A DNA stretch of 64,000 nucleotides from a virus, in the IMG/VR virus record IMGVR_UViG_3300048080_000657. The stretch is one strand, 5' to 3'. Positions 20,934 through 64,000 of the stretch are shown here, one piece after another. The position numbers and the translations under genes were made by a program. Under the pieces are notes generated by a model that did no database searches, was not told the DNA's origin, and was given only the letters and a program-made list of their open reading frames with translations. How positions within the stretch are numbered: the stretch's first letter is position 1; each line of letters opens with the position of its first letter.

Positions 20934-21738
20934 GGAATGCACCTAATGGTCAAAAGGTGAGGAGAATTGATGATCGACTGGAAGCGCATCGAGAAGACAA
21001 CCGTATCGGTCGGCGACCTCATCAGGATCGCCCGCGATCTGTGCGACGGAGACGGGGACAACGTAGAGTACCAGCGGGCATTGGCAGAACTCGTCTGCGA
21101 TGCGGCCGGAATCCCGATGGCGCTGAAGGCCGAGGTGGGCCACCGCATGGGCCTGAAGTGCAGCGTCGAGTAGATCACACTTTTGATCAAAGGTGAGGTA
21201 TGAACTGTGCTCGGTGCGAAACATTAGAAGGCCAGTTGAACGAAGCCAAGAGACTCCTTTCCGAAGCCCAGCATTGGATTGGTGTTGATCCCACTTACGA
21301 GGAGTCGGTAGCTATGGATGCGCTGGGTAAGAAAATAGCAGGGTTCCTGGGGAAAAGTGAAGAGCACCACGATCACCAAAGTGATCAAAGGTGAGGTCCG
21401 GATCATGATAAAAGCAAAACACAGGCATCGGTGGACTCCCGCTCACTTCATGAGCACCGTGGGATGGGTCAAGGCTTGCCGCGCCAGGGAGTGCCCCACC
21501 CCAATGAAGGCCGTTCAACCGAATCAGGTACGCCTTTCCAACGCAGCACGCACGCAATAGACCATTGGTGAGACGATGAAGAAAAAGGTCCTAGACCGCT
21601 GGGTGACGAGGTTTCTGAAACGGCTGGCCAAAGAAGAGGCCAAGATGTGGAAAGGCTGGCTTCAGAGATGGACGTCGACTGTTCAGGAAGATCTGATGGG
21701 CTATCGACGGGATCTAGGCCGCACGAAATGAATTATTG

Positions 21739-22041
21739 ATGAGGCAGAACCAGGTGGATGCTCAAATGAACAACGCCAAGGTGCGAGTCCCTCAGGGTCC
21801 GAAGGGCCCAAAGGCGATGCTGGCCCTCGTCGAGAAGTGGAAGGACATTCCCGAAGGAACCCCCGTCATCGTCACGAAGGACTTCGGCGAGCAGTTCCAT
21901 ACCAAGACCCGCTCGGCGCCCTGGCTGCTGGGAAGCAGCTCCCGCGACCCTGGGCACACCGCGGTCATCATGGTCGAAGGCATCAGCGGCGGCTACGGCC
22001 TGTGGCGGGTCCGCCTGGATTCTGTGGAACGCACCAAATAA
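21739..22041 (+). CDS. cassette hypothetical protein
   Basis: ATG supplied by the upstream site; TAA lies in the core of the next site. Confidence 0.65.
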   Translation: MRQNQVDAQMNNAKVRVPQGPKGPKAMLALVEKWKDIPEGTPVIVTKDFGEQFHTKTRSAPWLLGSSSRDPGHTAVIMVEGISGGYGLWRVRLDSVERTK

Positions 22042-22280
22042 ACAAAAGGTGAGCGATGACCCAAGAGACGGTAGGCCCCGGGCCGGCCTTCAATGATGAG
22101 CTTAGCCGACTCGCGAAGACATGGGCGCCGCCTGGCAGGGCGAGCGATTTCTTGATGGACGTCACCAAGGTGGTGATATCTGCCATCCAGGCCGGACGGG
22201 CGGCCGCTCAGGGGGCCCAAGGAATCGTGGTCTGCGGGAAGTGCGGCAAGGTCGTTCACCAATGCGAACATTGGTGAGGC

Positions 22281-22559
22281 ATGAAGACCATCGGATACCG
22301 GCTGCAGGAGGATTTGTACCACAAAGGATGGGAAGCGCGGCAGACCATCGAGATGCCGTCCGGGGCGAAGATCCTGTCCGTCACCGTGCAGGCCGGGGTT
22401 CCGACGGTTTGGGCGCTGGTCAATCCAGAGGCTCCGACGGAAGCACGATACCTCTATATCACCGAAGGCGGGGCCGAACTGGGCGACGAGTTCGTCGGAC
22501 GGCGTTTCATCGGAACCCTTCCGGCCTTCAGGGACTCCGCGATGCACATATGGGAATAG
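22281..22559 (+). CDS. conserved phage hypothetical protein
   Basis: MKTI..Y.L...MP.GAKILSV.VQ.G.P.VWALV pattern common in phage small proteins. Confidence 0.65.
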   Translation: MKTIGYRLQEDLYHKGWEARQTIEMPSGAKILSVTVQAGVPTVWALVNPEAPTEARYLYITEGGAELGDEFVGRRFIGTLPAFRDSAMHIWE

Positions 22560-22610
22560 GTGATGTGAGGGTCTCGTGCGACCCGCACAGAATTATAGAA
22601 AGGTGAGGAG

Positions 22611-23315
22611 ATGAACGACATCGTCAAGCCGATGACCCGCGACGGCTTGGTCGGCTGGGATGCCTACGGGCAGCTCTGGCTCTGGCGCGTGCAGGGCGAA
22701 AGACGGGAAGGGACCATCATCGCCGACGTTCGGGATAAGGTATGCTGCGTCTGCCGACGCGGCTGGGAGCTCAGCGCGGCGAGCATGGGCGACCAGTATT
22801 TCTGGTCGAATCGGGCCGAATGGGCGCATGAGACCTGCTACATCCGGCACTTGGCGCTCGACGAATTCGATTTCTGGTGTTCGGCCTTGGTCGGGGCCGG
22901 GTTCATCTTCGGACCGATGGACAATCCGAGGATGATCGCAGAGGGAGGCCCCGCCCTCGAGGCCCTTCCGAACGGATACTGGGGCCAGAAGGATCTCTGG
23001 GGTACCGGGATTCCCTGGTACCGGGCGCGGCTCCTCAAGAAGCTTGAGAACCGAGACAACGCCGCCCTCGGGCGCACCCTCAAGCTCGGTATGCGCAAGA
23101 GGGTCCACCATCTCGAGATCGAGGTCGGTTTCGGGCCCTACGATAGGACCCTCGCGGCCGAGCTTTTCAAGTCCGAGGATGTCACCAAGGAGATCGGCGA
23201 AGACCGCATGATGGTCCATGCTTGGGGACGGGACAAGGCCCGGGAGTACCTCAAGCACTTCGCGGAGATTCTCGGCGTGAAGAGCAGGGCCGCCGAGGCG
23301 GCGCTCACGAAATAG
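22611..23315 (+). CDS. cassette hypothetical protein (paralog of 36193..36858)
   Basis: MNDI..P.T.DGLVGWD...Q.WLW shared with the second copy. Confidence 0.8.
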   Translation: MNDIVKPMTRDGLVGWDAYGQLWLWRVQGERREGTIIADVRDKVCCVCRRGWELSAASMGDQYFWSNRAEWAHETCYIRHLALDEFDFWCSALVGAGFIFGPMDNPRMIAEGGPALEALPNGYWGQKDLWGTGIPWYRARLLKKLENRDNAALGRTLKLGMRKRVHHLEIEVGFGPYDRTLAAELFKSEDVTKEIGEDRMMVHAWGRDKAREYLKHFAEILGVKSRAAEAALTK

Positions 23316-23516
23316 GCAAAAGGTGAGGCAATGACACCGAAACAGTGGGCCAAAGAACTAGGTCTGGCACCGACGGCTTGGCAGACCATCGGAAATTACC
23401 AGTACGAGTTCGACGAGAACGGCTACACGGGATGGTACCGCTGCGTGGGCGGGAGGCTCGCGGATGGCCGGTGGCCCCAGTGGCGCATGGAATAGTCAAA
23501 AGGTGAGGAGCGCAAG

Positions 23517-23894: not shown

Positions 23895-23919
23895 ATAGCC
23901 AAAAGGTGAGGAGGAAGAC

Positions 23920-24586: not shown

Positions 24587-25083
24587 CCCAAAGGTGAGGA
24601 ACCAGATGCCCAGCGAAATACAGTTCGAGCGGTGGGGAGAGGACCAGATCCGGGCGGGCCGCTTCGTCGGCAAGACGGTGAAGGAATTCTCGTTCGGCGA
24701 AGCCAATGACGGTCGCGACGAGCGCCTAACCATCCTGTTCACCGACAACACGGCGTTGGTGATCGAGAGCCGCGTCACGCAGAAGGAGAGCTGGCTGATC
24801 CTGGGGGCCCGCGGGGAGGATGGGGCCCCAATCCGGGTTCGAAAGGTGATCATCGAATAGCCCAAAGGTGAGGAAGCCATGAAGGTGGGCGAATGCGTTG
24901 CGTGGGGGCTCTTCAACTGTGAGACCCGCAAACTAGTGGGAGGGAGAGGTACGCCCTATATCTCCGGTACCAAGTTGGGCGTGGAGAACATGGCAGTCGG
25001 CCGAAATGAAGTTCCAGTGCGAGTGAGGATAGTTCCGATCCTAGATCGCAAAAGAGCCAGAAGGTGAGGCGCGTCGAGGACCC

Positions 25084-26121
25084 ATGAAAGTCGAGCTTGA
25101 CCAGCGGGTGAAGGACGGGTGGATCAATGCCACCAAGAGCGGGAATCTGACGCTATATAATTACTCGAACCGCTGCGTTTTCGAGAAGTGGTGGGACCCG
25201 TACACGATGGCCGCGCGCGGCTTGGTGCTGGACGAGATCGGGTGCATCCTCGCCCGCCCCTGGCCGAAGTTCTTCAACCTTGGGGAACGTCCAGACGACA
25301 AGCTCCCCGCCGAGACCCCGGAGCTATCCAAGAAGTACGACGGCTCCCTGCTGATCGTCTTCTTTGATCGCGTCAGGTGGCGGGCCGTGACCCGTGGCTG
25401 CTGGGAGAACGTCCAGACTCAATACGCGACGAAATGGCTGGAGCAGTACGGGGAAAGGCTCCAGCCCCAGTACACCTACCTTTTCGAGCTTGTAGCGCCC
25501 TGGAATCGAATCGTGGTGCATTACCCGAAGGACGACATGATCCTGCTCGGGATCGTCGCCACGGACACGGGCGAGGACTGGAGCTACGCGGAGACCAGGC
25601 AGGAGGCCCTCCGAATGGGCCTGACTCCAGTGGAGTTCGAAACCCGCCCAATCGACTCTCTGAATCTTGAGGATCCTGCCATCAAGAATGAGGAGGGATT
25701 CGTTGCGCGATTCAGCAACGGCTTCCGGGTCAAGCTGAAGTACCGCCAGTATCTCTACCTGCACAAGATTGTTACGGGCCTGTCGGTCAAGGGGATTTGG
25801 GAGATTCTCGCCAGCGGGAACCAGCCCGACTTCTCGAACGTGCCGGATGAGTTCATGGGCTGGTACACGAAGCAGCGGGAGAAGATCCAAGGCGCCTTCG
25901 ACCAGCTCAAGGCTCAGGCCATTGCCATATTCCAGGCCATCGGCAAGAAGGAAACGCGCAAGGACTACGCCCTCGAGTACACGAAACACGGCGAGGTCGC
26001 CGGGGCCCTGTTCCGGCTGCTCGACGGGAAAGATGTGGCCGACGTGCTCTGGAAGCGGTGCCGTCCGGAGATTCACGAGGTTTTCAAGGTGGACGAATCA
26101 AGTGAAGGACGCAAGCCATGA
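25084..26121 (+). CDS. T4 Rnl1-like RNA ligase
   Basis: ARGLV, ARPWPKFFN, motif I KKYDGS, EEGFV, KLKY. Confidence 0.88.
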   Translation: MKVELDQRVKDGWINATKSGNLTLYNYSNRCVFEKWWDPYTMAARGLVLDEIGCILARPWPKFFNLGERPDDKLPAETPELSKKYDGSLLIVFFDRVRWRAVTRGCWENVQTQYATKWLEQYGERLQPQYTYLFELVAPWNRIVVHYPKDDMILLGIVATDTGEDWSYAETRQEALRMGLTPVEFETRPIDSLNLEDPAIKNEEGFVARFSNGFRVKLKYRQYLYLHKIVTGLSVKGIWEILASGNQPDFSNVPDEFMGWYTKQREKIQGAFDQLKAQAIAIFQAIGKKETRKDYALEYTKHGEVAGALFRLLDGKDVADVLWKRCRPEIHEVFKVDESSEGRKP

Positions 26122-26846
26122 CCGACGTAACGCGTTTCCTCGATGCTCTCGAGGCGAAGGAGACTCCTGAGGTGTTCCAGCGGCTCTGCGCCATAGCGAA
26201 GGCTGGTGAGATGAAGTGGGGCATTACTCCTGGCGACTGGGGCGCGCCTGACCTATCGGGAGGCTGATTTGCCTTTTGCCTCGCGCGGGCGCGAGGACAG
26301 ACACCTAGGCTGATATCTCATGGAAACGGTGACGTCACTTATAGCGAGGGCAATTGCGGTACGGTCGCTGTGGAGGCCTCTATAATTCTTCGGGAAGTTT
26401 TCTATGACAGGGACTACACCGAGTGGTCCTTCTCAAACCGCGTCGAGATCGTCGCGGAATTGGCGGGAAGGGTACGCGAATCAGCGGATTCGAGCAAGAG
26501 GGCCAAGTGATCAAGGATGGCATGATCAGAGTCGGAAACGGCCCCGCGTCTTGGGGTTTCACGCGACAGAAGTTCACTGGTGATTCGTACCTCTGGAAAA
26601 CCGGAGATCGAATCATGGTCAGTTTCATCGTCGCCAAGGAGCAGGGAAAGGGGAACTTCTCCGCCTTGGTGAAGGCCATCGAAGCCGATGGCTTCAAGGT
26701 AGCGGTTCCGACGCCGCTTGGAAAGATGCCTTCGATCCTTCAGCGATGGGGATTCCGGCCGCACTACGAAGTAGAGCCGGATCTAGGCGAGACGGTTGAA
26801 GTTTGGTGTCGATAGACGACTGGCTAGAAACAGGAAAGGAGAAGCA

Positions 26847-27155
26847 ATGAACAAGTACAAGCCGTTTCCCGAGGACTCAACGATTGGCGACCTCTACCAT
26901 CCAGCTATGAAGCTGGAGGCTGTAGAGGAGGCGAAGGACTACTTCGAGCGCCTGGTCGAGTACGGCATGGCGCACGGCCAGAGCCGAGAGGAGGCCGAGA
27001 AGAACTTGGGCTACTTCTCCGGGTACTACGATGCGACGACGGCGCAGAGAGTTTTCAAGCTGTTCGAGTGCGCTCATCCGTTTTTCGGAACGACGCGGCA
27101 CGGTGCTGCCGAGGAACTTGAGGCTGGCAAGAGGATGGCGAAGTCTCGTAAGTAG
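26847..27155 (+). CDS. hypothetical protein
   Basis: SD AAAGGAG. Confidence 0.6.
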   Translation: MNKYKPFPEDSTIGDLYHPAMKLEAVEEAKDYFERLVEYGMAHGQSREEAEKNLGYFSGYYDATTAQRVFKLFECAHPFFGTTRHGAAEELEAGKRMAKSRK

Positions 27156-27161
27156 GGAATC

Positions 27162-27431
27162 ATGATGAAGAGGGGCCGAGGCAGTTCGCTGACACGGGCC
27201 TTTGATTTGATTATCGCACTACGTCGGCACCGTTACGGAATGGACATCAAGGAGATTCAGACCCATTTGGGCACGTGTCTACGCCAAACGTGGCGTTATC
27301 TCAGGATGCTGGAGCGCGCAGGGGTAAAGCTTGAATGGAAGAAGGAGCCGCTCTCCTATCCGGGGGTGTGGCATCGGCTTATCCGGCTCGTGAACGTGTG
27401 CGGGTACAAGCTGACCGAGTCGCCTAAGTGA
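27162..27431 (+). CDS. winged-HTH DNA-binding protein
   Basis: LTRAFDLIIAL....MDIKEI...LG...RQTWRYLRMLE. Confidence 0.65.
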   Translation: MMKRGRGSSLTRAFDLIIALRRHRYGMDIKEIQTHLGTCLRQTWRYLRMLERAGVKLEWKKEPLSYPGVWHRLIRLVNVCGYKLTESPK

Positions 27432-28728
27432 GGATTGACGTAATGAACGATCCAGAAGGCGGCTTCGCTTGTCCGTTGTGCGGCCTCGCGCACCCGCATA
27501 GGCACGGTGCCTCTAATGGGAAGCAGATTCGTCAACTCCACAAGGCCGCCGAGGTGACAAAGGAGCGCGGCTCGTGGAAAAGTGCATATCCATTGATTGT
27601 GGTCAACTGTCCAGAATGCGGTGGATGCTCGGCCTTCCATCGGTGCAATATCCGCGAGGACACTGACGGCTTCGCGGAGAACCAGAGGACTGGCAATAGA
27701 GTCATGAGATGCCCGCATTGCCGGAAGTTCATGGTTCTTCATCTGGTCGGCTGGAACCCAAAGGCCGGGATGGGTGTCGCGTAACTGACGAAACGTGAAT
27801 GGAGGGGATATGAGCGATCATAGCCATTGCTTCTGCCAGGCTATCACTGACGAGTACGACAAGTGTTGCTACTGCGGGGAGCCAAAGAAACGAGACAGGA
27901 AGCGATGCACGTCCCATTGCATGTGCCAGCGGTCTGAAAAGGATGGTCTAGCCTGGATCACTTGCTGTAAGTGTGGCGACTCAACCCGCCTCTTTACCGG
28001 GCCTGCGTAATCACGCTATAGCTCTGACGCATATGAGCAAAGACGAACCGATTAGCGAGGAGTATTTCGAGTATCGGCTCAACCACACGATGAAGGTTGG
28101 CGAATGGAGTGGGTTGAATGAAGCCGCCGGTCTCCTCATGAAGAAAGCCCTTGAGGCGTTTGAGCAGGGAGACAGGGAGGCACATCGGTACCGCAAACTC
28201 TCAAAGGAACTCAAGACGCTGGCAACCACGCGGCATCCTGGGCCGCCCAAATAGCTCATGCGCGGCTTAATTTTGAACGGTCTTGAGTGGCTCTGGGAAC
28301 TGCGCTCGCTCCCCGAGTGGGAGCGCCGCGGCGGTGTCGGCGAGGCCGCAAGCATGACGCGGTTCTACATCGGAGAGGCGTGGCTGTACTTCAAGGCAGC
28401 GTGGGACGTGTGGACGGAATAACCGGTACGTCTAAGGAGGGTAAGTGAGGATCGAAGTTGAGGCGCACCACATAATTTGCGGTGAGCGCTACAGTACATC
28501 ACGGTGTCCCATCGCCTTGGCCGTGACATCGAGGCTCCCGGCGGGCCGTTACGCCATCGTCGATCAAGAGAGCGTCTATGTGCGAGAGCGTGGCAGGCTT
28601 CCAGAAGAATTCGAGCAGGCGTTCCTGCTTCCAGAAGTGGCGCGAAAATTTGTAAAAAAGTACGACGCACAGGGCCCCGTTTGGCCATTCGCGTTCGAGA
28701 TGGACGACACAGGCGAAAGGAGACAGTC

Positions 28729-28980
28729 ATGAATAAGGCACTATGCTTGGCATTCCTCTGCTGGTTAGGTCTCTGCAGCGTTGGGTGTGACGAGGGAGGT
28801 AAAGGAGACGGGGCGCAGAAGAGCAGGACGACCCTCGGCGTGTTCTCGGGGGTGGACATCAGGACTATCGAGCACGACAAGCATTTGTTCGTAGTGGGGT
28901 ACACCGGGAGTACGGAGGGTGGGCTGTCGATCCTGCATCACCCGGCCTGCCCCTGCGGAACGCTCAAGCCAGAAAAGTGA
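28729..28980 (+). CDS. predicted secreted protein or lipoprotein
   Basis: Hydrophobic N-terminus ending SVG|C. Confidence 0.55.
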   Translation: MNKALCLAFLCWLGLCSVGCDEGGKGDGAQKSRTTLGVFSGVDIRTIEHDKHLFVVGYTGSTEGGLSILHHPACPCGTLKPEK

Positions 28981-29034
28981 GGCGCCTTTGTTGCGAGAGA
29001 CGCATAACTTGAATTCTGAGAAATGAGGTGAAGC

Positions 29035-29460
29035 GTGGGCAGAGAAGTCCGTAGAGTCCCGGCAGACTGGAAGCATCCGAAGAACGACGAGGGCCACTAC
29101 CTCCCCATGCACAAGCACTTCCCGTACAACGAGGAAAAAGTCCAGGAGGGCCTCAAGGACGGGTGGCTCAAAGACGAGCCCCCGAACTACGGTTGCGACG
29201 TCATGCCACAGTGGCCCGCATCCGAACGGACCCACCTCCAGATGTACGAGACCTGCTCCGAAGGGACGCCGATTTCCCCCGTGATGGAGACGCCCAAGAA
29301 GCTGGCGCGATGGCTGGCCGACAACGGCGCGTCAGCCAACGGCTCCTCGACGGCCTCCTACGAGGCATGGCTGGCGACGATCAAGCGAGGGTGGGCTCCC
29401 TCCATGGCTGGAAGGGCTGGCGAGATCACCAGCGGGGTCGAAGGATTGGCGAAGCTGTAG
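29035..29460 (+). CDS. conserved phage hypothetical protein
   Basis: MGREVRRVPADWKHP...QMYETCSEGTPISPV pattern. Confidence 0.65.
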   Translation: MGREVRRVPADWKHPKNDEGHYLPMHKHFPYNEEKVQEGLKDGWLKDEPPNYGCDVMPQWPASERTHLQMYETCSEGTPISPVMETPKKLARWLADNGASANGSSTASYEAWLATIKRGWAPSMAGRAGEITSGVEGLAKL

Positions 29461-29495
29461 TACGACTTGAAAGACGAACTACGGAGGATTAATCA

Positions 29496-29759
29496 ATGTT
29501 CGATGAGTTCAAGGACGAGTTCCTGAAGTTCGAGAGGGTCAAGGACAAGCTCAGCCAGCGCCCCGACCTCCACGCCTTCATCCTGCTGGACAAGCTTCTC
29601 CCTGGTACGGGAGATATGGTGGCGGGGGCGGATCATGACGAGATCTACCTATCGCCCGATCCGGAAGAACTGGCGAAGGTGGCGACGAAGGATCAACTTC
29701 GGGACCTCCACAGGTGCGGGGTCCGCGCGGACGGCAACGGCCTGTGTATGTTCGCGTAA
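29496..29759 (+). CDS. hypothetical protein
   Basis: SD GGAGG; 87 aa. Confidence 0.6.
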   Translation: MFDEFKDEFLKFERVKDKLSQRPDLHAFILLDKLLPGTGDMVAGADHDEIYLSPDPEELAKVATKDQLRDLHRCGVRADGNGLCMFA

Positions 29760-31250
29760 GACCAATTCATAGAAGGTGACGACGATGAAATGCTTGGACT
29801 GCGGCGGTGAGCCCGACAGCACGAAGCATCAGATGACGTGCGTGAAACTGCGCCCTGATAACCAAGAGATCACCCAGCTCCGCTCCGAGGTTGGGGGTTG
29901 GAAAGCCGCCTATGAGCGGTGCGTGAAGGACCTTGAGGATGCACAGAAGGAAACCCTGAAGGCCATGGAGGAGAGGGCTGTCACGTTTCTTCAGGTTGGT
30001 GAACTCAAGAAGGCGCTCTACGCCGAATGCAGGGCGCTCTCCTGCGGCCCTGAGTGTGAAGGTGGAGGCTACCGCAGTTGTCGCGGGTGCGACAATCGAG
30101 CGCGGGCGGCCTACGGTCTTGGCTGGGGTAGTGTCACCGAAAAGCCATTCTCAGACTCCGAGATAAAGGCGCGGCTGGCGCTGATCGAGAATGGCAAGTG
30201 CCCTGAGTGTGGTCAGAAAGTACACCTACACAACTGCACCGACAAGCAGAAGTGCGAAGCCTTGGTTCCGGTGGACGACCACATCGGCGGCTCCCTCTCC
30301 TGCGGGAAACCGCTCCCGTGCCCGTTGCACAGATGAACGCATCTATGACTCCTGAGGAAAGATTCTGTTCTGCGGAGAGGACCGGCCCGATCGGCTCCAT
30401 GAGTCACCGCGACTGGTGCGATCTTCACGGCACTTGGACGTTCGATTGTCTACTTCGTCTCAGGCTTACGTTCCGCCCGTTGCCTGACGACAAAAAGTAT
30501 CGTGACGCGCTAGAGCGGAAGCGCAATCGTTGAAGAGCTAGACGATGAAATACATCATCGCCAAGGGCAGCGCCAAGCTACCCTTATTCTGGAGCCGGGA
30601 TGGGTGGGCGTCGATCACCCATTGGGCCAGCCGCTACGAGACGAAGGAGGCCGCCGAGAAGGCCATCAAGATTCTTGGGCTTGAGAAGGAGCAAGAGATT
30701 CGGGTGGAGGTACGCGAATCGTGAAGACGATGAACGTGCAACAGGCATACAGCCGTCTCGGTGGCTTCCGATCCCTCGCCCAAGGGTGGGACAGCTATTC
30801 AGGGAAGCCGATCAGCCCCAAGGCAATCGACAAGGCGTATGAGTTGCTTGGACTGTTGCGGGACGGATGGACTCCGGTTCCCTGCTCTGATGGGTCTGTT
30901 CAGCTTGAGTCCCATGAAAACGGCGTGGACATCGAGATCAGGATTTCGGAGACTTAGAAGATGAAGTCCAAGAAGCGCGTCAAGTGCGCCTTCTGCGGAA
31001 AGCGCAGGAAGCCACTATGCAAGGGAGGAATCCGATGCCGACAGTGTTCGGATCGGATGTGTGGACGATGAGGTCGATGACCAGCGTCAAGTGGAAGCCG
31101 GGAGTCGGAGGCCCCGCGTGTGTCTGCTGCACGAAAGGACCGCCGCGTAAGTGGAAGCCGAAGCTGCGCCGGTTGGAGCGCAGGAAGGCCAAGCAGAGCC
31201 GCCATGAGGAGTCGTAGACCATGACTTAGACAAATGTTGACTGAAGCGAA

Positions 31251-31290
31251 ATAAAAAGGCCCCGGAGAGCACGGTCTTGATTCCGGGGCC
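31251..31290 (-). terminator. intrinsic terminator-like hairpin reading on the minus strand
   Basis: GGCCCCGGA/TCCGGGGCC 9-bp inverted repeat preceded on + by an A-tract. Confidence 0.5.
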
Positions 31291-32112
31291 GGTAAGGTGA
31301 AGCGAGGATTATACGAGGTTGCGCGAATGATTGCCAGCGTGGAGGCGAGCCTGTGAAGAAGCTGGTTGAGTTCAGAAAGCATCCTGACTGCGCCCCCGGA
31401 ACATGGTGGTGGATGAGCGACGGAACCGACCCGAGCGGGCCGACGATCTCCTGTCCGAAGTGCCAAGCCCTCCACGGCCTTGACCACAAGGTGGCCGCTG
31501 ACGGGGAACTTGACCCGTCCATCGTCTGTACCCGATGTGACTTCCACGAGTACGGGAAGCTGATGGGATGGACTTACGGGGAGAAGGATTTCAGGACCCA
31601 GGCTTCTTAGACGAATCGGAGGTAACACGTAATGATGACCCGCTCCTGCGCCCTCTGCGGCTCGGTGAAGACTGGGCTGGAGGCTGAGATAAAGGCCGGT
31701 GGCGAGGCTTTTTCTGTGGCACTGGATCACTGGTGGCGCGGGATGCACAAGCCCGGATGCAGGTATCTCGAATGGTCTGCCTCTGAGCGGACAGCCTACT
31801 TCATGGAACACGGGAGCCCACTCTCGTCGGTGGAGGAATAAGAACGATGGCGAGACGCTCTCGGAGAACTTAACGTGAAACGCTGTTGCGTTTGTAAATG
31901 CAAGCGGCCTGAGCCCGCATCCAAAGCCACGAAGGAGGGCTGGGCAGGATGTCGTGTTATGTCTCGCGGCCAGAAATCACATTGGTTCTGCCCGCTCCAT
32001 CGACGGGGGGATGAGGGGCGATCGTCTCCAGTAATTGAGCACGCGGAGGCAGTTGCGGATGGAGAAGTCCAGTGTGAGGTCGCTTAACGGACAAAGGTGA
32101 TCCAGACAGCCC

Positions 32113-32142
32113 TTGACCTTCCATGAGTAAACGCGGTATACT
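32113..32142 (+). promoter_or_regulatory. sigma70-type promoter with operator-like box, between two junction sites
   Basis: TTGACC-18-TATACT; GTAAAC-GCGG-TATAC. Confidence 0.75.
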
Positions 32143-32186
32143 ATCGGAGACAGATTACCAATCAATCAAAAGGTGAGGCTGAGCGC

Positions 32187-33214: not shown

Positions 33215-34369
33215 ATGGGGAAAAGCAGATACGAAGTGGTGGCCAAGCTCGTCTGGGACGGCGGCGATGAAGTGCGCATTCCGGAGGAGCTGGGAACACC
33301 GCGCGACGACCAGATGCGTGGAACGCCTGGAGAACGCTTGAGTGAGCTCTCCGGGCGTGTGTGCTACGACTCGCTCGGAAAGGGTCGCTCTAGCTACGAC
33401 TACCACAGGCACATCAAGGGAGTAGGCCACTTTTCGGTCTACGAGCACCACCAGATAACGGTGTTCGTCGGCAACGAGAAGCTCGAAGGCGGTCGATTGC
33501 TGCAGGCCAGGACGCTCGTCAACCGCCCCGGCATCTTCGTCCGCTTCGGGAAGGATGGCGCTCGGCTCACGTTCAACCCCAGGGTGCTCCTCGACTGGGA
33601 CCAGTGGAACGACCCCGAGGACCCGGACGCGCTGTGGCTGAAGGACGTCCTTCTCTACTACGCGGAGCAGGACTGGCCGAGAATTACCCCGTGCGAAGCC
33701 TTCCGAACCGCAGAGAACTGTACGTCGGTCGCGCTCTGCAGCCGGCGGATGGCACCGGATCACGACGAGGAGAAGTGGGTCAGCATGTTCATCACGGGCT
33801 CCCGCGGTATGACCCATGAGCTCGTCCGGCACGGCGATCGGACCGCCATTTCCCAGAGATCCACGCGATTCGTAGACGAGGACGGCTCCCCCTGGATCGA
33901 CCATCCGCTCGTTCAGGAGTTCCTCGGGTCGAACGAGCCGCTTCCGGAGGATCCGGGCGATCGCATCAGGGGCGCCCTCAAGGCCCTGATCGAGGACACG
34001 AAGAGCGCCGCCCGGGCAACGTACGCCAAGGCTGCGGAGTGGCTGCAGAGGTGGCTGGCTTTGAAAGGAACCGACAAACTCACGGCTCGGAAGCAGGCCC
34101 GCGGCGCCGCGCGCGGCTACCTCGGGAATGCGCTCTACACCGAACTCGTCTTCTCGGCGTCCGTGGCTCAGTGGAAGCGGATGATCCGGCTGCGCTGCAA
34201 TGACGGGGCCGATGGGGAGATCCGTGCTGTCTTCGTGGAGGTCCTGAAGGAACTCAAGCAGTGTCAATATGCCCGAGCTTTCGAGGCTTTCGATCTCGTG
34301 CCGGCCTCCGATGGTGTCGGACATGTCGCGAGCGAGCGAAAGCCGATGCACGTTCCGGCCCAAAGGTGA
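33215..34369 (+). CDS. thyX: FAD-dependent thymidylate synthase
   Basis: GH.SVYEH, SRGMTHELVRHG, SQRSTRF, R....A..EIR. Confidence 0.82.
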   Translation: MGKSRYEVVAKLVWDGGDEVRIPEELGTPRDDQMRGTPGERLSELSGRVCYDSLGKGRSSYDYHRHIKGVGHFSVYEHHQITVFVGNEKLEGGRLLQARTLVNRPGIFVRFGKDGARLTFNPRVLLDWDQWNDPEDPDALWLKDVLLYYAEQDWPRITPCEAFRTAENCTSVALCSRRMAPDHDEEKWVSMFITGSRGMTHELVRHGDRTAISQRSTRFVDEDGSPWIDHPLVQEFLGSNEPLPEDPGDRIRGALKALIEDTKSAARATYAKAAEWLQRWLALKGTDKLTARKQARGAARGYLGNALYTELVFSASVAQWKRMIRLRCNDGADGEIRAVFVEVLKELKQCQYARAFEAFDLVPASDGVGHVASERKPMHVPAQR

Positions 34370-36192: not shown

Positions 36193-36858
36193 ATGAACGA
36201 CATTCTTCGGCCGCTGACGGCGGACGGCTTGGTGGGCTGGGACCAGTTCAACCAGATCTGGCTCTGGGAGGTCGAGGGTGAGACGCGGCGTGGGCACATC
36301 ATCGCCGACGTCAGGGAGAAGATCTGCAGAGTCTGCAACCGCGGCTGGGAGACGACAGCCAAGGGCCTGGGGGACCAGTACTACTGGCAGACCCGGGAGG
36401 AGTGGGCCCACGCGAGTTGCTTCGTGCGCTATCTGGCCCTGCGCGAGTACTCCTTCTGGCATGATGCACTCTGCGGGGTATTCCGGTTCGAGCGGCCGGC
36501 GGAGATCCCCAACGAGTACGGTGGGGCGTGGAACACGCCTTGGTACCGGGTAACGCTGCTCGACGTGCCGCGGACACTCAAACTGGGGCACCGGAAGCGG
36601 GTCTACCACATGGAGATTGAACCGGAGGGGCGGTACGCCCCGCCTGCGGACGATACGCCGGAGGCCGCAGCCAAGCGGTTCGCGGCGAGGGCGCGGACGA
36701 ACCTATCGCACGCGACGAAGCTCTTCGAGGCGGAAGAGGTGACCAAAGAGGTGGGAGCGGACATGGTGCTCGTCCACGCCTGGACAGAAGAGAAGGCCCG
36801 TGAATACCTGAAGCACTTCGCGCAGGTCTTGGGCCTGCCACCGCGGGAGCAACGATGA
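36193..36858 (+). CDS. cassette hypothetical protein (paralog of 22611..23315)
   Basis: Shared N-terminus and C-terminal A..YLKHFA..LG. Confidence 0.8.
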   Translation: MNDILRPLTADGLVGWDQFNQIWLWEVEGETRRGHIIADVREKICRVCNRGWETTAKGLGDQYYWQTREEWAHASCFVRYLALREYSFWHDALCGVFRFERPAEIPNEYGGAWNTPWYRVTLLDVPRTLKLGHRKRVYHMEIEPEGRYAPPADDTPEAAAKRFAARARTNLSHATKLFEAEEVTKEVGADMVLVHAWTEEKAREYLKHFAQVLGLPPREQR

Positions 36859-43587: not shown

Positions 43588-43633
43588 GACGCGCCAGATC
43601 ACGAATCTACTAAAAGGTGAGGAATAGCGCGCT

Positions 43634-49058: not shown

Positions 49059-49166
49059 ATGGAAGTCCTGTTTGTAATGGCCGGATTCGGGCTTGGTTTT
49101 CTCGTCGCGCTCTGCCTTCATGAGCGGTCCGGATGCGGAGAAGCACACCAATCTGCCGAAAGGTGA
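49059..49166 (+). CDS. 35-aa membrane peptide (paralog of 41945..42073)
   Basis: MEVLFVMAGFGLGFLVALCL; stop supplied by site 49145. Confidence 0.65.
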   Translation: MEVLFVMAGFGLGFLVALCLHERSGCGEAHQSAER

Positions 49167-50310
49167 GCCGGAAACATGGACAAGCCTTGCGAGAAGTGCG
49201 GTCACCCAGGGCCGTTCATCCCGAAGAGCATTCCCGATCCCGATCCGCGGAAGGGGATGAAGGTCTGCTGTACCGCTTGCGGAAAGGACATCACCTACGA
49301 CACCCATCAATGGAGGCACGAGCCCGATGGCCGCTGGGTCTGTTGCGATTGTATGGCTTCGACGAAAGCGCTCCGCGATATGACGCACAAATCCGCTGAA
49401 AGGTGAGGAGAATGAGCACTCGCGAGGAAAGACGGGCAGAGTTCGATGCGGCACTGAAAGCAGCCTTGAACTTGAGGCCCCTCTATGCTGCCATGGATGA
49501 GGAAGACCGGGTCGCACTTGTCAGGCGCTATCCGGATCCCGATCGATCACTCGGCGCGCTCTTCAAGGGCCCGCTGATCCAGTTGTTCGATCGGGCCGAT
49601 GACCTCCGGGCCCTCGATCACCAATCCGCAGAAAGGTGAGGCCCATGAAAGCGATCTTGAGTCCGGAAGAGAGGGCGGCTGGGTATTGCGATTGTTGCAG
49701 GAATTGCACACCCGAGAGGATGTGCCCAGCCTGCAAACAGATCGCTGAGGAGATCCGGGGAGCGCTTCAAGACGACCGGAAGCGCATCATCGCCGCTTTC
49801 GAGACGGCATGGGCTGCCCTAGGTGACAAGGATTGGGCTTGGAAAGAATCCCTGCTCTTCAAGATCAGGACGGGCCCTGACGAGACGCGTCAATCCGTAG
49901 AAAGGTGAGCTGGAAGTGGAACGAAGGACGATCCGCGGCGATCGCTCACTGGCGCCCTACTGGCACAGGAGCCAGACATTGAAGAACACGGAGCGGCTCT
50001 ATTGCCCCTGTGGATGCTTGGTCTACGACGGGCCGAAGCCGAACTTCGCGCGGATCAGCTGCCCGAAGTGTAAGAGGGTGACGGATGTCCCCAGGAATCC
50101 GCGCCAATCCGCCAAAAGGTGAGGGATTATGAACACGCCCATGGAAAAACGGATTCTAGAGAGCGTTGACCGCATCGACAAGCATGCCCAAGCGATCAGG
50201 TCTTTGCTCTTTGAAATCAGGAGGCTGTCCGTCGAGAAAGGCAACTGCAAGGATATCTGGCAGTTGGCCAACGAAGCTCTGAAGCACATTTCAGCCGAAA
50301 GGTGAGCGCG

Positions 50311-58034: not shown

Positions 58035-58559
58035 ATGCAGGCTGAAGAGAAGGCTCAGCTCGGCGCGGCCGCCGCTGAGATTCTGAAGATGCTCCAGACC
58101 TGGGGCTTCGACACGAACCAGTCCTGTCGAACGCTTCTCGGCGTGGCTGCGGTGATCATCGCCGAGGGATGCAGGGGAGATAAGGTTTGTCTCGATGATA
58201 CTCTTGACCGTTTCTGCAATACGATCAGGGAAATGGCCGAGGATGCGTTCGGGAAGCCCAAGAACGTCACCGCCTCGAAGATGGCCTTTGATACCCACAC
58301 CAAAGAAAGCCGCGATCTTGTGGAGCGGATGCTCAAGGAAGAGGAGGAAGGCGGCTATACCCCGATGATGGTAAGATTCCCCGTCAAGAAGGGCTGCCGG
58401 GCCTGTTCGGGTCAGACGGGGATGTTCCGGACGAGCGTCGTCAGGAAGAGGCTCTCGGACCGTTCGGTGACCCTCTGGGCAATCGTCACGCTTTGCGAAC
58501 AGTGCCTTGGGAACGCGGATGCCAAGGCGAAGTTGCTCGGGATGCTCACGGAAGGATAG
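58035..58559 (+). CDS. cassette hypothetical protein
   Basis: Between sites 58006 and 58546; TAG lies in the site core. Confidence 0.65.
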   Translation: MQAEEKAQLGAAAAEILKMLQTWGFDTNQSCRTLLGVAAVIIAEGCRGDKVCLDDTLDRFCNTIREMAEDAFGKPKNVTASKMAFDTHTKESRDLVERMLKEEEEGGYTPMMVRFPVKKGCRACSGQTGMFRTSVVRKRLSDRSVTLWAIVTLCEQCLGNADAKAKLLGMLTEG

Positions 58560-58563
58560 AAAG

Positions 58564-59562
58564 GTGAGCAAGAAGATCCTACTCCTCCAGCTCGACGGGA
58601 AGATCCCCAACATCGCCCTCATGAGGATCGCGGCACACCACCGCGCCCTGGGCGACGCCGTCGAGTTCCGCTGGGGGAGGACGGTCGCCTCGGCGTCACC
58701 CGATCTCTTCGACCGGCCGGATCGGGTCTATGCCTCGCTCATCTTCGAGCGGACGAAGCCCGTCGCGGAGCGGCTCCTACAGACGTATCCGGACTCCGTG
58801 GTGGGCGGAACCGGCTGGGACGTGGCCTCCTCCCTCGAGGCGGCCGGCATCACGACGAAGGCACAGGACTACTCGGTCTATCCCGCGTGGCGCCAGTCCA
58901 TCGGCTTCACGCAACGGGGTTGCCGACTCAAGTGCCCATTCTGCGTAGTCCCTACAAAGGAAGGCCCGGTCCGAGAGGAACAGACGATTGCCGAACTCTG
59001 GCGCGGGGAGCCCTGGCCCCGGGAGATCATCCTCCTCGACAACGACTTCTTCGGACAGGCCTCCTGGCCCAAGCGGATCGAGGAGCTACGCGCCGGCCGT
59101 TTCAAGGTGAGCTTCAACCAAGGAATCAACGCCCGCTTCCTCACCGATGAGACCGCAGCCGCCGTCGCCGGCGTCGACTACCGGGACGACCAGATGAAGG
59201 ATCGCCGGATCTACACGGCATGGGACAACAGGAAGGACGAGGGGCGCCTGTTCGCCGGCCTCGAGGCGCTCGTGCGCCACGGGGTCAGGCCCGACGACAT
59301 CATGGTCTACATGCTCCTTGGGTACTGGCCATGGTCGGATCTCGAGGATTGGGAGCACCGGCGCCGCCGGCTGCGCGAGTTCGGCTGCCGGCCCTATCCG
59401 ATGCCCTACGAGAGGACCCCCCAGGCTGTTGGATTTCAACGGTGGGTGATCGGCGCGTATGATAAGAGGATCGGCTGGCCGGAATGGGAGGCGGCGGGCT
59501 ACCGGCCTGAGCGCGTGGGCCTGCATGCGGAAACGCCCCTGTTCGAGGTCATCGAAGAGTAG
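58564..59562 (+). CDS. radical SAM protein
   Basis: PNIALM; TQRGCRLKCPFCVVP (CxxxCxxC); LLDNDF; FNQG; GTG start supplied by site 58546. Confidence 0.85.
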   Translation: MSKKILLLQLDGKIPNIALMRIAAHHRALGDAVEFRWGRTVASASPDLFDRPDRVYASLIFERTKPVAERLLQTYPDSVVGGTGWDVASSLEAAGITTKAQDYSVYPAWRQSIGFTQRGCRLKCPFCVVPTKEGPVREEQTIAELWRGEPWPREIILLDNDFFGQASWPKRIEELRAGRFKVSFNQGINARFLTDETAAAVAGVDYRDDQMKDRRIYTAWDNRKDEGRLFAGLEALVRHGVRPDDIMVYMLLGYWPWSDLEDWEHRRRRLREFGCRPYPMPYERTPQAVGFQRWVIGAYDKRIGWPEWEAAGYRPERVGLHAETPLFEVIEE

Positions 59563-60017
59563 AAAGATGAGCATGAAGAAGCGCCAGCGCTTCAAGTGTC
59601 ACGGATGTGACCGTCGCAAGGCCTTGAAGTACCTTCACCATCATCGGGACGAGAGGCCCTATTGTGTCGATTGTTGGAAGAGGATGTACTAGCACACTCG
59701 AGCAGAAAGGTGAGGGTATGAAGATTCTGGCGATCGACAATCTCGTATTCAAGCTGCCGGACACGTTCAAGGGCAGCTTCAGTGATGCTCTTCGTGCTCT
59801 GGCTCGCTATCACGACGGAAGCCCAACAGCGATAAGGCAGAAGAAGCAGCCAGGCGGTCGGCTGACAAGAAAAACGTGGGATGCCTTTCTGAGTGTTGTC
59901 GACAAGGGTGGTTGTCTGGCCTGCATCGCGTCACTTCAGAAGTGGACGGGAAAGACGTGGCGGAAGTTCCCACTGGAGAAGGGATGGAAGAAGTTGAAGT
60001 CACGGAAGAGCTGAAAG

Positions 60018-60422
60018 ATGATCAAGAGACTTTCTGATAGGGTATGGCAGGCCGATGAGGCGGACGCCAGGAAATTGTGTGAGGGGCATTCCGAACGTTG
60101 GCTTACCGAAGGTTTTAAGGCGGTGCTTTGTCCGGCATTCAACGTCAGGATTCCTTATCACCCGCGGCTCGCGGCCATGATCCTGCCCGTATGGGATGAG
60201 ACGGACGCCCCGTCCGAGATGTTCGATTGCGCTGCCTATTTCCATAAGGCATTCGGCCCGACATTGGTTCATTGTCATGGAGGTTTGAACAGATCCTCAG
60301 CCTTCGCGGCCGCACTCCTTGTGGCCGACGGGATGTTTGTCGAGAAGGCTCTTGAATGTGTCAATGCCACACCCAATCCGGAGCTCCTTAGATCACTCCG
60401 GCGATGGGTGCAATCACGATAG
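60018..60422 (+). CDS. dual-specificity/Cys-phosphatase-like protein
   Basis: LVHCHGGLNRSS (HCxxGxxRS). Confidence 0.8.
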   Translation: MIKRLSDRVWQADEADARKLCEGHSERWLTEGFKAVLCPAFNVRIPYHPRLAAMILPVWDETDAPSEMFDCAAYFHKAFGPTLVHCHGGLNRSSAFAAALLVADGMFVEKALECVNATPNPELLRSLRRWVQSR

Positions 60423-60441
60423 ATCACCAAAGAGCACAAAG

Positions 60442-60921
60442 ATGAGTGCCCGAAGCTATAAGCTGCTTGATGGGACCAGCGTCCCGTTGAAGGTTCTCTC
60501 CAAGCGAGAGAAGGGCTTCATCCGCTCGCTTTGGGTGATGGCCTCTGATGGCGTCGACTACTTCGAGCTGTACCGCATCGCTTGCGGACCTAGGTCACCC
60601 GCTCTTCAAGGAAGATCGCGCGTAGACAAAGAGCTTGTCCAAACTCCCGTCTATCGGATAGCGAGAGACGTCGTAACCCGGACAGGGATTCGTAAAGGAC
60701 TGATTCTAGGCTCCGGCAAAGAGCCTGAAGTGGTTTCTTCATTGGCTCAGCTTCTGCAGCCGCTCAGCGTTCCACAGGCGGCGAGCCTGATCGGGATCTC
60801 TCGTATAGCTGTCTATAAGGCGATCCAGAAGGGCCACCTTCCAGTTGTGAAAGTAGGGAGCGTGCTGATCGTTGAACGAGGGGACGCCGAGGCTTACAAG
60901 AGATCCAGGCGGATCACATAA
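60442..60921 (+). CDS. protein with C-terminal excisionase/MerR-like HTH
   Basis: LSVPQAASLIGISRIAVYKAIQKGHLP..KVG. Confidence 0.75.
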   Translation: MSARSYKLLDGTSVPLKVLSKREKGFIRSLWVMASDGVDYFELYRIACGPRSPALQGRSRVDKELVQTPVYRIARDVVTRTGIRKGLILGSGKEPEVVSSLAQLLQPLSVPQAASLIGISRIAVYKAIQKGHLPVVKVGSVLIVERGDAEAYKRSRRIT

Positions 60922-61553
60922 GAGCGGAAAGGTGATGTGGGGAAGAACTTCCAGTGGGAGCGCCTCCAGAACATGAGAATTTATCTCGAGGAGAAAGGCC
61001 ACCGCTTCAGTGGGTTTCCGATGCAGTGCCAGAAGTGCGGCATCCTACTCGGGGTTCTTTCGGCTATGCTGGAGAAGGCGCCGGCCTGTGTGCCGCCGGC
61101 GCAGGATCACCAAAGGGCGGATCGGTGCGCGTATGACGCCAGAAGAGGAAAAGATCAGACGTGAGATGGCGGAGGTGAAAACCTTTACGCTTAATAGATG
61201 TCCGGGCTGCGGCGAGTTGCTTGGGTCTGGCTGGCAAACACGCAACGAAGCGATCCTTGAGTTCGCAAGGCACACACTTGGGTGTAAGGGCGTAAAAATG
61301 CTTGGAGCGCGCACCAAATCCTAGAAAGATGAGGAAAGGAAACAGCATGATGACGACGAATCAGGCGATCAAGGAAGCCACACGAGGCGTGCTCTCGAGC
61401 CGGGAATACCGCGCGCAGGTGATGGCAATCCTCGAAACTCGGCTTGAGACTGCGATCACCGAAGGTGACGACGAGGGGGCTTACGCTTATGCCGCAGGAA
61501 TCGAGGCTCTCAAGATCGAACCGCGCACCGAATCGTAGAAAGGTGATGTGGCC

Positions 61554-62271: not shown

Positions 62272-62499
62272 ATGATGTGCGACCAGTGCGGCTTGGGGAT
62301 GGCGAACGTGGGGCGCCAGATCAAGCCAGGCCATCCAGAGATCTGGATGGACGGATGGGTCTGCCCGAAGCGCCGCTGCCCAGGCTACGGGACCACCGAC
62401 CACCGGGATTCCGTGAGCCGTTGGCCTGGGATGACGCTGATGCCGGAGGCGCCGCTCCACGCGATGATCCGAGGAGCGCTGAAGTTCAGGGACGCGTAG
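62272..62499 (+). CDS. Zn-finger cassette protein (paralog of 61554..61811)
   Basis: See paralog. Confidence 0.75.
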   Translation: MMCDQCGLGMANVGRQIKPGHPEIWMDGWVCPKRRCPGYGTTDHRDSVSRWPGMTLMPEAPLHAMIRGALKFRDA

Positions 62500-63175
62500 A
62501 AGACGTAAAAGGTGAGGTCAGCAATTGGGCCACGTTGCGGGAAACCGTGATGCCGCCCCGTGAAGAGGGGCGGTGGTTGGCAGCGAACCCACACTGCCTA
62601 ACGTCGGACCTGCGGGCGAGACGCGAGATTAGTGCCGCCAAGCGGCCACGGTTTCCCGCAATAGGGCACTGAAGAGGTAAAAGGTGAGGTCATGAACGAT
62701 CCAAGGAAACAAAAGTGCGTGGAGTGCGAGAAGAAACTCCATGGGGGCCCGAGCTGCACCAAGCACGGTATGGCCGGATTGGCGACCTTGGCAGAGGCCA
62801 TCTTGAAGGTGGCCAGGAATACTCGCCGAAGAGGCAACTGGTGAGCACGATGGTTCATTACATGAACGTCATCACACCGGGCCCGCTTATCATCGTGCGG
62901 ACCCCCTACCCGCTACCCCGTTGGAGGCTCGTACTTAAAGCCCTGACGCCGGTCGTGCAATCGCATGGTTATAAGCAGAAGGACATCAGCGCGATCGAGG
63001 GTTTGCTCCCATATCCGGACGATCCATGGAGCCCCGAGGAGACACAGTTCGCTTCCCGGATCGAGAAGGCATTTGCGGGAGACCCCGAGGTTCTACCCCG
63101 CTTTTGGCTGTACGATTGGAAGGCCGGGGAGTTCGTGGTGGCGCGAGAGCCTCATAGAAGAGATAAAAGGTGAGG

Positions 63176-63204
63176 TTGACAATACTGCCCATTCACTGTA
63201 GGCT
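63176..63204 (+). promoter_or_regulatory. sigma70-type promoter of the hicBA cassette
   Basis: TTGACA-17-TAGGCT immediately after site 63152. Confidence 0.6.
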
Positions 63205-63340
63205 TACTCTTGCTAGAACAAGACGGAAGGAGACCCACATAAACTCTCTCGGAAGCCGCCTTCGTCCCGACGGCGTCTTGTTCTAGCAGACATTCGTCCG
63301 ACGGGCGGGCGGCCTCCAGGTGAGTTCAAGGAGACCGTGT

Positions 63341-63553
63341 ATGACGTATACCGTGGTTGTCGACTACGATTCCGAAGAGCGTGTCTTTAACGTTTCGGTT
63401 CCTGCGCTTCCCGGATGTTTCGCCTGGGGCAAGACCAAGAGCCAGGCGCTGAGCAGGATTAAGGAGGTCATGCGCACTTACTTGGATGCACTCGTCGATC
63501 TGGGGCAGTCCATACCAGAGGAGGTCGACGTCGAGCGGGTCACGATCTCGTGA
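63341..63553 (+). CDS. hicB: HicB-like antitoxin
   Basis: YTVVVDYD.E...FNVSVPALPGCFAWGKT..QAL..IKE. Confidence 0.85.
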   Translation: MTYTVVVDYDSEERVFNVSVPALPGCFAWGKTKSQALSRIKEVMRTYLDALVDLGQSIPEEVDVERVTIS

Positions 63554-63771
63554 AGCCAAACCCGTCACGTCCAAAGGAAGTCGAAGCGGTAGTCTTGCGC
63601 ATGCGTTTCGTATTCATCCGTGAAGGCAAAGGAGCCCACCGCATCCATGCCCATGAGGATGGCAGGATGACGTCGATATCTTTTCATCCTGGAGATGTGC
63701 CTGCCGGAACGCTCCGAAAGATCATCTCCCAAATAGGCCTGACGGTAGAAGACTTCAACGAGATGGTCTGA
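63550..63771 (+). CDS. hicA: HicA-like mRNA interferase toxin
   Basis: REGKGAHRI.AH.DGR..SISFH..DVPAGTLRKII.Q.GL. Confidence 0.82.
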   Translation: MKPNPSRPKEVEAVVLRMRFVFIREGKGAHRIHAHEDGRMTSISFHPGDVPAGTLRKIISQIGLTVEDFNEMV

Positions 63772-64000
63772 CATACCCATGAGTCACGAAAGAAATAAAA
63801 GGTGAGGAATCTTCTCGCGTTCGTCATGCTGCGGTGTCGCTGCTGCGGAATGAAGATCCCTCACAAAGGGAGCTATGCTGAGATGTTGCGTGAGGCGATC
63901 CGGCGTGGATGGGTATTGCGTGGCCAGGATTACCTCTGTGAACGCTGCAAGCACTCGCCTAAGGTATAAAAGATGAATGGGGCCCAGCGCCGCCCCAAGC

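Follow-up and report, generated by a model that had tools for sequence, protein, structure and literature searches.

Small accessory genes of phages often serve anti-defence or host-takeover functions. How large phages gain and exchange such genes without wrecking their neighbours has been an open question since Botstein's 'linker' idea, and it is raised directly by the DNA analysed here, a stretch of 64,000 nt from IMG/VR virus record IMGVR_UViG_3300048080_000657 (the window). The window belongs to a 216-kb contig of a jumbo phage, assembled from a sediment metagenome, and all results on gene content refer to these visible 64 of 216 kb. Within it, a 26-nt junction site recurs between small genes approximately 100 times, and the six central letters of neighbouring sites (the core) are frequently similar and never identical. 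Does this pattern reflect the way in which genes enter and leave the array? Our tentative answer, held at somewhat less than even confidence, is that the site is a stop/restart linker for translation as well as a crossover point, and that neighbours with identical cores would lose the gene between them.

Junction site and its role in translation

The junction site comprises a 10-nt left arm, a 6-nt core and a 10-nt right arm, with the consensus (G/A)(A/C)TCAC-N-(A/G)AA, six variable letters and then AAAGGTGAGG. Sites were called by a position-weight matrix scan in which the six core letters were unscored, yielding 103 sites on the + strand versus 8–17 on the − strand at equal thresholds. Based on the scan, the spacing and the strand bias, 100 sites form one array (20937–63978, + strand), and three outlying sites lie upstream of it (8336, 12732 and 13736; 8336–13761, + strand). 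The first-pass annotation, made from the letters without database searches, had listed about 95 sites, slightly fewer than the scan, giving for each the coordinate of position 3 of the 26-nt site. The median spacing is 260 nt, and the intervening genes, with a median length of 75 aa, are all on the + strand. The arm-core-arm spacing is invariant in 100/100 sites. TCACC and GGTGA form a 5-bp inverted repeat with its dyad at the exact centre of the core, whereas the three inner positions of both arms are direct (AAA/AAA); positions 3 and 7 are paired in just 58% and 45% of the sites, respectively.

The right arm is the Shine-Dalgarno (SD) sequence of the downstream gene: it acts as a ribosome-binding site, given that most sites have GGTGAG 0–10 nt ahead of the next start codon (74 of the 93 starts called in the array are ATG). 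As a rule, the site also contains the stop of the gene before it, most often at offset 21 (31 times, the TGA of GGTGAG) and otherwise at offsets 14 (nine times, A preceded by the final two letters of the core), 10 (seven times, the first core triplet) and 13 (three times, the last core triplet). Thus, the module provides a stop in all three frames. Sigma-70-type promoters and intrinsic terminators showed no excess in the array, and the cassettes are therefore promoterless. The left arm, as the inverted repeat of the SD sequence, resembles an anti-SD sequence. A stable RNA hairpin at the site was ruled out, since pairing between the arms is weak (mean minimum free energy −4.5 kcal/mol, z = −0.84, stem of 3–5 bp) and shows no compensatory changes or covariation. 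Variants of the left-arm CAC comprised 30 transitions versus three transversions (25:7 in related arrays), and every variant in the window can wobble-pair with the right-arm GTG; this is modest evidence for a role of the left arm on the mRNA.

Two minority forms of the site were also found. At 21548–22279 and in the related locus L135, the right arm reads ATTGGTGAGG or ATAGGTGAGG and, together with a left arm ending in AAT, produces a longer palindrome (CACCAAT/ATTGGTG at 22254); this form predominates in the L098/L135 lineage. At sites 40634, 41556, 59547, 59998, 60422 and 61309, AAAGATGAG replaces AAAGGTGAG and places an ATG within the right arm, and the C at position 6 is mostly retained at these sites, breaking the putative pair.

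Stepwise drift of cores and the missing identical neighbours

Consecutive cores in the array differ by Hamming distances of 0 to 6 in 0, 32, 28, 16, 11, 11 and 1 pairs, respectively. Both the absence of identical consecutive cores (0/99) and the abundance of one-mismatch neighbours, as reported in the first-pass annotation, were thus borne out, and restricting the count to the 80 strongest sites gave the same picture (0, 29, 23, 11, 6, 10 and 0). The mean neighbour distance was 2.43, compared with 3.99 in shuffled order (z = −13.6), and the 32 pairs with at most one mismatch compare with 2.4 after shuffling (maximum of 10 in 10,000 shuffles). The mean distance rose with lag (2.43, 3.01, 3.38, 3.54 and 3.65 at lags 1–5). 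This autocorrelation was limited to site positions 10–16, with weak signals at positions 8–9 and for the rare right-arm variant A20; neither the variable arm positions 1–3, 7, 25 and 26 nor the spacer between the SD sequence and ATG showed any neighbour correlation.

To express the deficit, a zero-truncated mixture was fitted to classes 1–6, in which 75% of pairs were related (binomial, per-site difference of 0.236) and the rest were background. The fit predicted 17.3 identical neighbours (bootstrap 8.7–32.7), whereas none was observed (P about 1e-7); hence, the zero class is indeed depleted, as had been conjectured from inspection. A fit-free bound, N0 ≥ 0.40 × N1^2/N2, which is valid for any mixture of ages and allows for mild rate differences among the six core positions, gave at least 14.6 identical neighbours versus 0 observed. 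Single mismatches were rich in transitions (30/51, versus 41% in unrelated pairs and approximately 64% in strain polymorphisms) and thus resemble point mutations in cores that had started out identical.

Identical cores do recur at greater distance. The whole array holds only two identical core pairs, one of which is the GCCCTG pair noticed in the first-pass annotation (46140–46165 and 46550–46575, + strand, lag 2). A second recurrence that it proposed, of CTATTG, stands only in part: the core is indeed shared with site 47834, but the upstream copy is a half site (47613–47633, + strand) consisting of the left arm, the core and AAAGG without GTGAGG, which lies inside a gene and is identical to site 47834 over 19 nt. 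The one adjacent identical pair that it had set aside for degenerate arms (CCAGCG, 12963/13289) is not part of the array, and its right arm is a different one (GAGGGSCTAAGCC). Between any two full sites, the longest exact shared run is 18 nt, found in the neighbour pair with cores CTACTA/CCACTA (43597–43800, + strand).

Several simple sources of core similarity were rejected. Tandem gene duplication fails to explain it because neighbouring genes are generally not paralogues (only five paralogous cassette pairs, one of them adjacent), and whole-site copying is at odds with the lack of neighbour correlation at arm positions 1–3, 7, 25 and 26. An assembly artefact was likewise dismissed, since both the reads and the final k-mers of the assembly exceed the 26-nt repeat in length, and since the pattern apparently also recurs in independent assemblies.

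A purely regulatory or translational element is a further candidate. Local similarity would then mark co-regulated blocks or local sequence constraints, and the zero class would be missing either because neighbouring mRNA junctions must differ or because the expectation is set too high. The clear SD and stop functions, the presence within cores of stops in two of the three reading frames and the wobble-type variation of the left arm would all suit such an element. However, co-regulation predicts many identical cores rather than one-step differences, the drift is gradual and not block-like, the deficit persists under the fit-free bound, and homology between relatives breaks at the sites (see below). 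We therefore regard this explanation as very improbable.

Arrays in related phages

Scanning metagenome contigs for the motif identified eight loci with arrays of the same site, and an RNA-ligase search added a further array locus, L122; scans of IMG/VR and of species genomes returned single chance matches and no arrays. The related arrays also drift stepwise, as in L090, where nine consecutive steps had distances of 1, 1, 1, 2, 3, 1, 1, 1 and 1. Across 69 non-redundant neighbour pairs from the related loci, distances of 0 to 6 were found in 3, 19, 17, 15, 4, 7 and 4 pairs. The three identical neighbours are fewer than the bound of 8.5 (P = 0.03), and pooling the window with its relatives gave three versus at least 23 expected (P about 2e-7). 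The relatives had been named beforehand as the place where many identical neighbours would speak against a deficit: 'never' does not hold there (3/69), but the deficit does. The absence of identical neighbours is thus a strong tendency and no law.

The exceptions are the core CATAGG, present three times in L078, and CGAATA, present twice in L083. Both identical-core pairs of L078 differ at position 17, the letter directly after the core, and the two cassettes between them encode unrelated proteins; the three cores showed no polymorphism across the three assemblies containing the locus. The L083 pair is a true identity over 18 nt, and its L090 orthologue differs by one letter.

Phages with 70%–76% Rnl2 identity or 72% helicase identity to the window (L119–L121 and L134) are devoid of the motif, and their genes are joined through overlap of stop and start codons. 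Thus, the linker is an innovation of a narrow clade. Extension of the L098 contig (L135) revealed neither additional sites nor a recombinase.

Turnover of cassettes at the sites

Blocks of homology between related loci start and stop at sites (L092/L099, L077/L099 and L083/L090), and the differences between relatives include two clean cassette indels as well as several replacements. The first indel was found against a second sediment run (X2). The window carries a cassette (gene 49412–49639, 75 aa) between a CCGCTG site (49383–49408, + strand) and a CCGCAG site (49616–49641, + strand), and the cassette is absent from a closely related strain, represented by an X2 contig that runs from 49397 straight into 49631, the joint having 11 shared letters (GAAAGGTGAGG), and differs from the window by 2 and 5 letters over flanks of 248 and 267 nt. 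Most other apparent joints had only 20–27 letters on one side, coming from contigs of other phages in which nothing but the motif matched, and were left uncounted. In the second indel, a cassette flanked by AGGTAG and GGGTAG is present in L092 and absent from L099, where a single site combines the left arm and core found at the first L092 site with the right-arm variant of the second. Both mapped joints lie within the shared right-arm run, that of L092/L099 beyond a length difference in the A-tract. Given that the cores flanking each of these cassettes differ by one letter, the suggestion that one mismatch locks a cassette in does not hold as an absolute rule.

Replacements follow the same boundaries. 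In L083/L090 and L077/L099, the same slot holds unrelated cassettes. Each arm goes with the cassette that it adjoins, the left arm with the one upstream and the right arm with the one downstream, and the core is either unchanged or altered at a single letter. The Rnl2-type RNA ligase gene within the array (39458–40417, + strand) provides an orthology anchor between the window and its relatives: the cores that follow it are GCGCCG, GCGCAG and GCGCGG in the window and GTGCCG, GTGCAG and GCGCTG in L122, and the intervening genes are unrelated. Likewise, a stretch with cores GGATAG, GAGCGG and TCCTAG (58544–61334, + strand) has the same order in L092, with only two small cassettes shared. Within the window, one small cassette is duplicated (41932–42053 and 49046–49168, both + strand, 84% identity); the homology starts at the border of core and right arm and extends through the next site, and the flanking cores match the local neighbourhood rather than the cassette.

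Two further differences were seen. A contig at approximately 440x coverage (the phage being at approximately 85x) joins 44990 straight to site 45945; in this relative, which outnumbers the phage in the same sample, the 3' portion of gene 44384–45367 is missing, as is the following open reading frame (ORF). In L135 (11492–12612 and 15765–16016), the gene tables of near-identical JGI and ENA contigs differ by single cassettes of other length in the same slots; as read from these tables, the differences are probably further cassette replacements.

Proposed linker and crossover point, and alternatives

Starting from the observed site anatomy, core statistics and cassette turnover, we propose the following course of events. 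The linker would be the only sequence common to approximately 100 otherwise unrelated promoterless small genes and would therefore also be the crossover point at which single genes are inserted, deleted or swapped between related phages. A new junction would be a copy or chimera of the recombined junction; neighbouring cores would begin alike and drift by point mutation, producing the stepwise walk. Direct repeats with the same middle would be the best substrate for recombination, with deletion of the gene between them, and a phage bearing a useful gene between identical junctions would keep producing deletion mutants. With the core as the only freely mutable part, mismatch variants arising there would be favoured, which on this proposal is why identical neighbours are rare (0/99 in the window and 3/69 in relatives). 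Recombinational loss would thus cause the deficit, and its catalyst might be the general short-homology recombination of the phage rather than a dedicated enzyme. The position of both joints within the shared right-arm run fits such homology-driven exchange. The plausible translational roles of both arms, the lack of a recombinase among the ORFs scanned, the non-inverted inner arm triplets and the polymorphism of one-mismatch cassettes also argue for this mechanism.

Loss of identical pairs is not in itself sufficient, however. If one-mismatch pairs arise neutrally from identical pairs, survivorship alone could not yield the ratio of 0:32, because N0/N1 is then the ratio between the rate of leaving state 1 and that of passing from state 0 into state 1, approximately 0.8, whatever the loss rate. 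Therefore, either positive selection for a mismatch or birth with a mismatch would be required. This qualifies the anti-excision ratchet proposed in the first-pass annotation, according to which cassettes between perfect matches are excised and lost: a large and recurrent deficit that is tied to the core, together with cassettes that come and go at the sites, agrees with it, but survivorship alone fails.

Birth with a mismatch would make selection against identical pairs unnecessary. Junctions could originate from exchange at the same or an adjacent address between diverged relatives, or from segregation of heteroduplex cores, and the flanks of a cassette would then carry the parental differences. 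Orthologous cores are indeed often one transition apart (GCGCCG/GTGCCG, GCGCAG/GTGCAG, CGAATA/CGAATG and TCCTAG/TCCTGG), the mismatches are rich in transitions, and the steady-state argument above, by which survivorship would not deplete class 0 relative to class 1, points in the same direction. In contrast, the lineages show no difference in approximately half of the comparisons of orthologous cores, such that identical neighbours should often be born; they are present in L078 and L083, and no known mechanism forces a mismatch. Overall, we consider it rather improbable that neighbours are simply born different.

Returning to the linker and its loss by recombination, several observations weigh against it, most of them concerning what part of the site matters. 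The exact shared runs of neighbouring sites are slightly longer than those obtained with permuted arms (9.29 vs. 8.58). When the cores were forced to be identical and the real arms were kept, the runs in 78% of pairs were still no longer than 18 nt, a length that one-mismatch pairs are seen to tolerate, and approximately 38% had runs of 13 nt or less. A rule based on run length should therefore spare approximately 6 of the approximately 17 expected identical pairs, and none was seen; the plain longest-perfect-run rule was accordingly rejected as the sole cause. The deficit is tied to the core and not to the length of homology, although changes in arms and core are unordered, which weakens this test. 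This dependence on the core is the strongest argument for a mechanism in which the centre of the site is read. Furthermore, the core is centred on the TCACC/GGTGA dyad at invariant spacing and looks like the site of a dimeric protein, whereas an RNA hairpin with a stem of only 3–5 bp lacks the support of covariation. Recombination genes were sought among 30 larger ORFs of the visible 64 kb, the other 152 kb of the contig lying outside the window.

These observations bring in a dedicated site-specific system, encoded by the phage or by its host. A recombinase dimer would bind the arms and exchange strands across a matching core of 6–7 nt. Differing neighbour cores would be heterospecific and would not allow excision, but exchange at the same address of a co-infecting relative would remain available, and integration of cassette circles would duplicate the core and make neighbours similar. 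The cores would then constitute a positional address code, and the array a library of approximately 100 slots for accessory genes that are exchangeable and not excisable. The 10+6+10 geometry with its invariant spacing around the dyad, the confinement of neighbour autocorrelation to positions 10–16 and a deficit that follows core identity rather than run length are all in keeping with this scheme. The same applies to the half site with an identical core, where an identity of 19 nt is tolerated, and to orthologous addresses that keep their cores while the cassettes between them are unrelated. The rule that tyrosine recombinases act best on identical overlaps, to which the first-pass annotation appealed, would likewise give a core-tied deficit, as seen.

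The enzyme itself did not emerge: scans of 30 larger ORFs in the window and 10 larger ORFs in related loci detected neither a tyrosine recombinase (Phage_integrase) nor one of another family. The attribution to a tyrosine recombinase therefore finds no backing in the scanned ORFs, and it fits poorly with the direct AAA/AAA triplets of the inner arms and with a right arm that is wholly explained as an SD sequence. Left-arm variation obeys the wobble rules of RNA, one indel joint (L092/L099) lies beyond the core, one-mismatch cassettes are polymorphic between near-identical strains, and the rare right-arm variant A20 is also common to neighbours, all of which count against site-specific exchange. 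On its behalf, a protein with a borderline excisionase-type helix-turn-helix (HTH) domain may be encoded within the array itself (ORF 60319–60921): its C-terminus matches the excisionase family just below the cut-off (TIGR01764, 28.5 bits; cut-off 28.8) and HTH_17. The frame and start of this ORF are uncertain because site 60422 lies inside it. Taken together, we judge a dedicated system unlikely, albeit a serious contender, and regard the reading of the cores as an address code with the same reserve.

Comparison with known systems

The closest described system is that of the promoter-early stem-loop (PeSL) elements of T4-type phages, which are mobile regulatory cassettes (PMC2839356, PMC4122927). 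Mini-circles of PeSL cassettes form without a dedicated recombinase, and the authors liken PeSLs to integrons and to Botstein's 'linker' sequences (PMC2839356). A general mechanism driven by homology at the linker, like the one favoured here, has been proposed for PeSLs. As portrayed in the abstracts (2010 and 2014) and the 2010 discussion, small ORFan genes in a plastic part of a large phage genome (lytic and T4-type in the case of PeSLs) are separated in both systems by a short and conserved regulatory motif, the motif bounds insertions, deletions and replacements between relatives, and no dedicated recombinase is known. In contrast, a PeSL combines a promoter with a terminator hairpin, whereas the present site combines a stop with a ribosome-binding site and serves promoterless cassettes. 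Approximately 100 sites stand here in a single co-oriented array, and a 6-nt centre that drifts, keeps its position and avoids its neighbours goes unreported in those abstracts and that discussion.

Sedentary chromosomal integrons share with this locus a long array of promoterless, co-oriented and mostly single-gene cassettes, a short and imperfectly palindromic bounding site and a cassette content that varies between relatives. All 100 sites and genes of the array are on the + strand, as expected of a promoterless co-oriented array. The attC site is typically an imperfect palindrome of approximately 60–140 nt and, to our knowledge, carries no position-specific core. The present site differs in having 26 nt, no GTTRRRY core and no match in an Rfam scan, and it doubles as ribosome-binding site and stop; an IntI-type recombinase was not found in the larger ORFs scanned (30 in the window and 10 in related loci).

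A similar geometry is known from the plasmid dif modules of Acinetobacter, which are Xer-dependent and flanked by pdif sites of 11+6+11 (PMC6449649). There too, short sites bracket the modules, the recombinase is encoded elsewhere and modules recur in varied contexts. However, the present sites have no likeness to dif sequences, and they are all direct, whereas the orientation of pdif sites alternates.

The logic of distinct neighbouring cores with conserved addresses has its nearest counterpart in heterospecific lox and FRT sites. One or two changes in the 8-nt spacer of these sites block recombination with the parent site, and a cassette between two different spacers can be exchanged and not excised (recombinase-mediated cassette exchange). 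Those sites are engineered, whereas no recombinase was identified here in the scanned ORFs; we know of no natural array that uses the principle of heterospecific spacers.

Genomic context of the array

The window encodes Rnl1- and Rnl2-type RNA ligases, ThyX, an SNF2 helicase, a HerA-like ATPase with a LAGLIDADG insert, PAPS-reductase-like proteins, a Mom-family protein and a DNA methylase, a set of functions typical of large phages. In the HerA-like ATPase (997–3834), the LAGLIDADG domain lies inside the protein, and several homologues of the helicase bear intein or homing-endonuclease domains; inteins thus seem common across this phage group. The ThyX match spans only residues 190–349 of a 384-aa ORF (33215–34369). 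The array is interrupted by a gap (25070–32152, + strand) occupied by the Rnl1-type RNA ligase and approximately 6 kb of small genes without a site. Scans of the window for tRNAs and against Rfam gave no matches.

The closest phage records were a 309-kb Acidobacteria phage and a 485-kb uncultured phage, with approximately 47% helicase identity; the motif is absent from these records (Tunturi_5 and LR745208). The RNA ligase of the window is recorded on a single 216-kb contig. One run alone, from a sediment metagenome, contains the stretch almost in full, and no RNA data set is listed for it. Based on the helicase, the closest relative in IMG/VR is L053, a 199.6-kb contig with 50% identity, which also carries 33 copies of a repeat of approximately 36 nt with a period of approximately 72 nt (17293–19735), resembling a CRISPR array on a phage contig.

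Within the array, 22611–23315 and 36193–36858 encode paralogues of 220–234 aa with 47% identity, 13.6 kb apart and each behind a site. For the 426-aa ORF at 13814–15094, located behind the outlying site 13736, a search of 1.84 billion representative proteins returned no homologue at all; the ORF is either an orphan or no real gene. Atlas searches with this ORF and with ORF 44384–45367 gave no matches.

Implications for gene exchange in large phages

As a natural example of a solution to the problem of acquiring small genes safely, the array is unusually large and clean: approximately 100 single-gene slots share one stop and restart module, and the six-letter middle of the module holds its place from one relative to another even as genes come and go. 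The avoidance of identical neighbours is strong, replicated and directly testable, and it makes amenable to experiment the notion that sequence identity at the centre of a junction controls the loss of the adjoining gene. If the cores do serve as an address code, the array would represent natural recombinase-mediated cassette exchange in a jumbo phage, and if a dedicated enzyme reads them, it would constitute a new kind of programmable, address-specific system for gene exchange.

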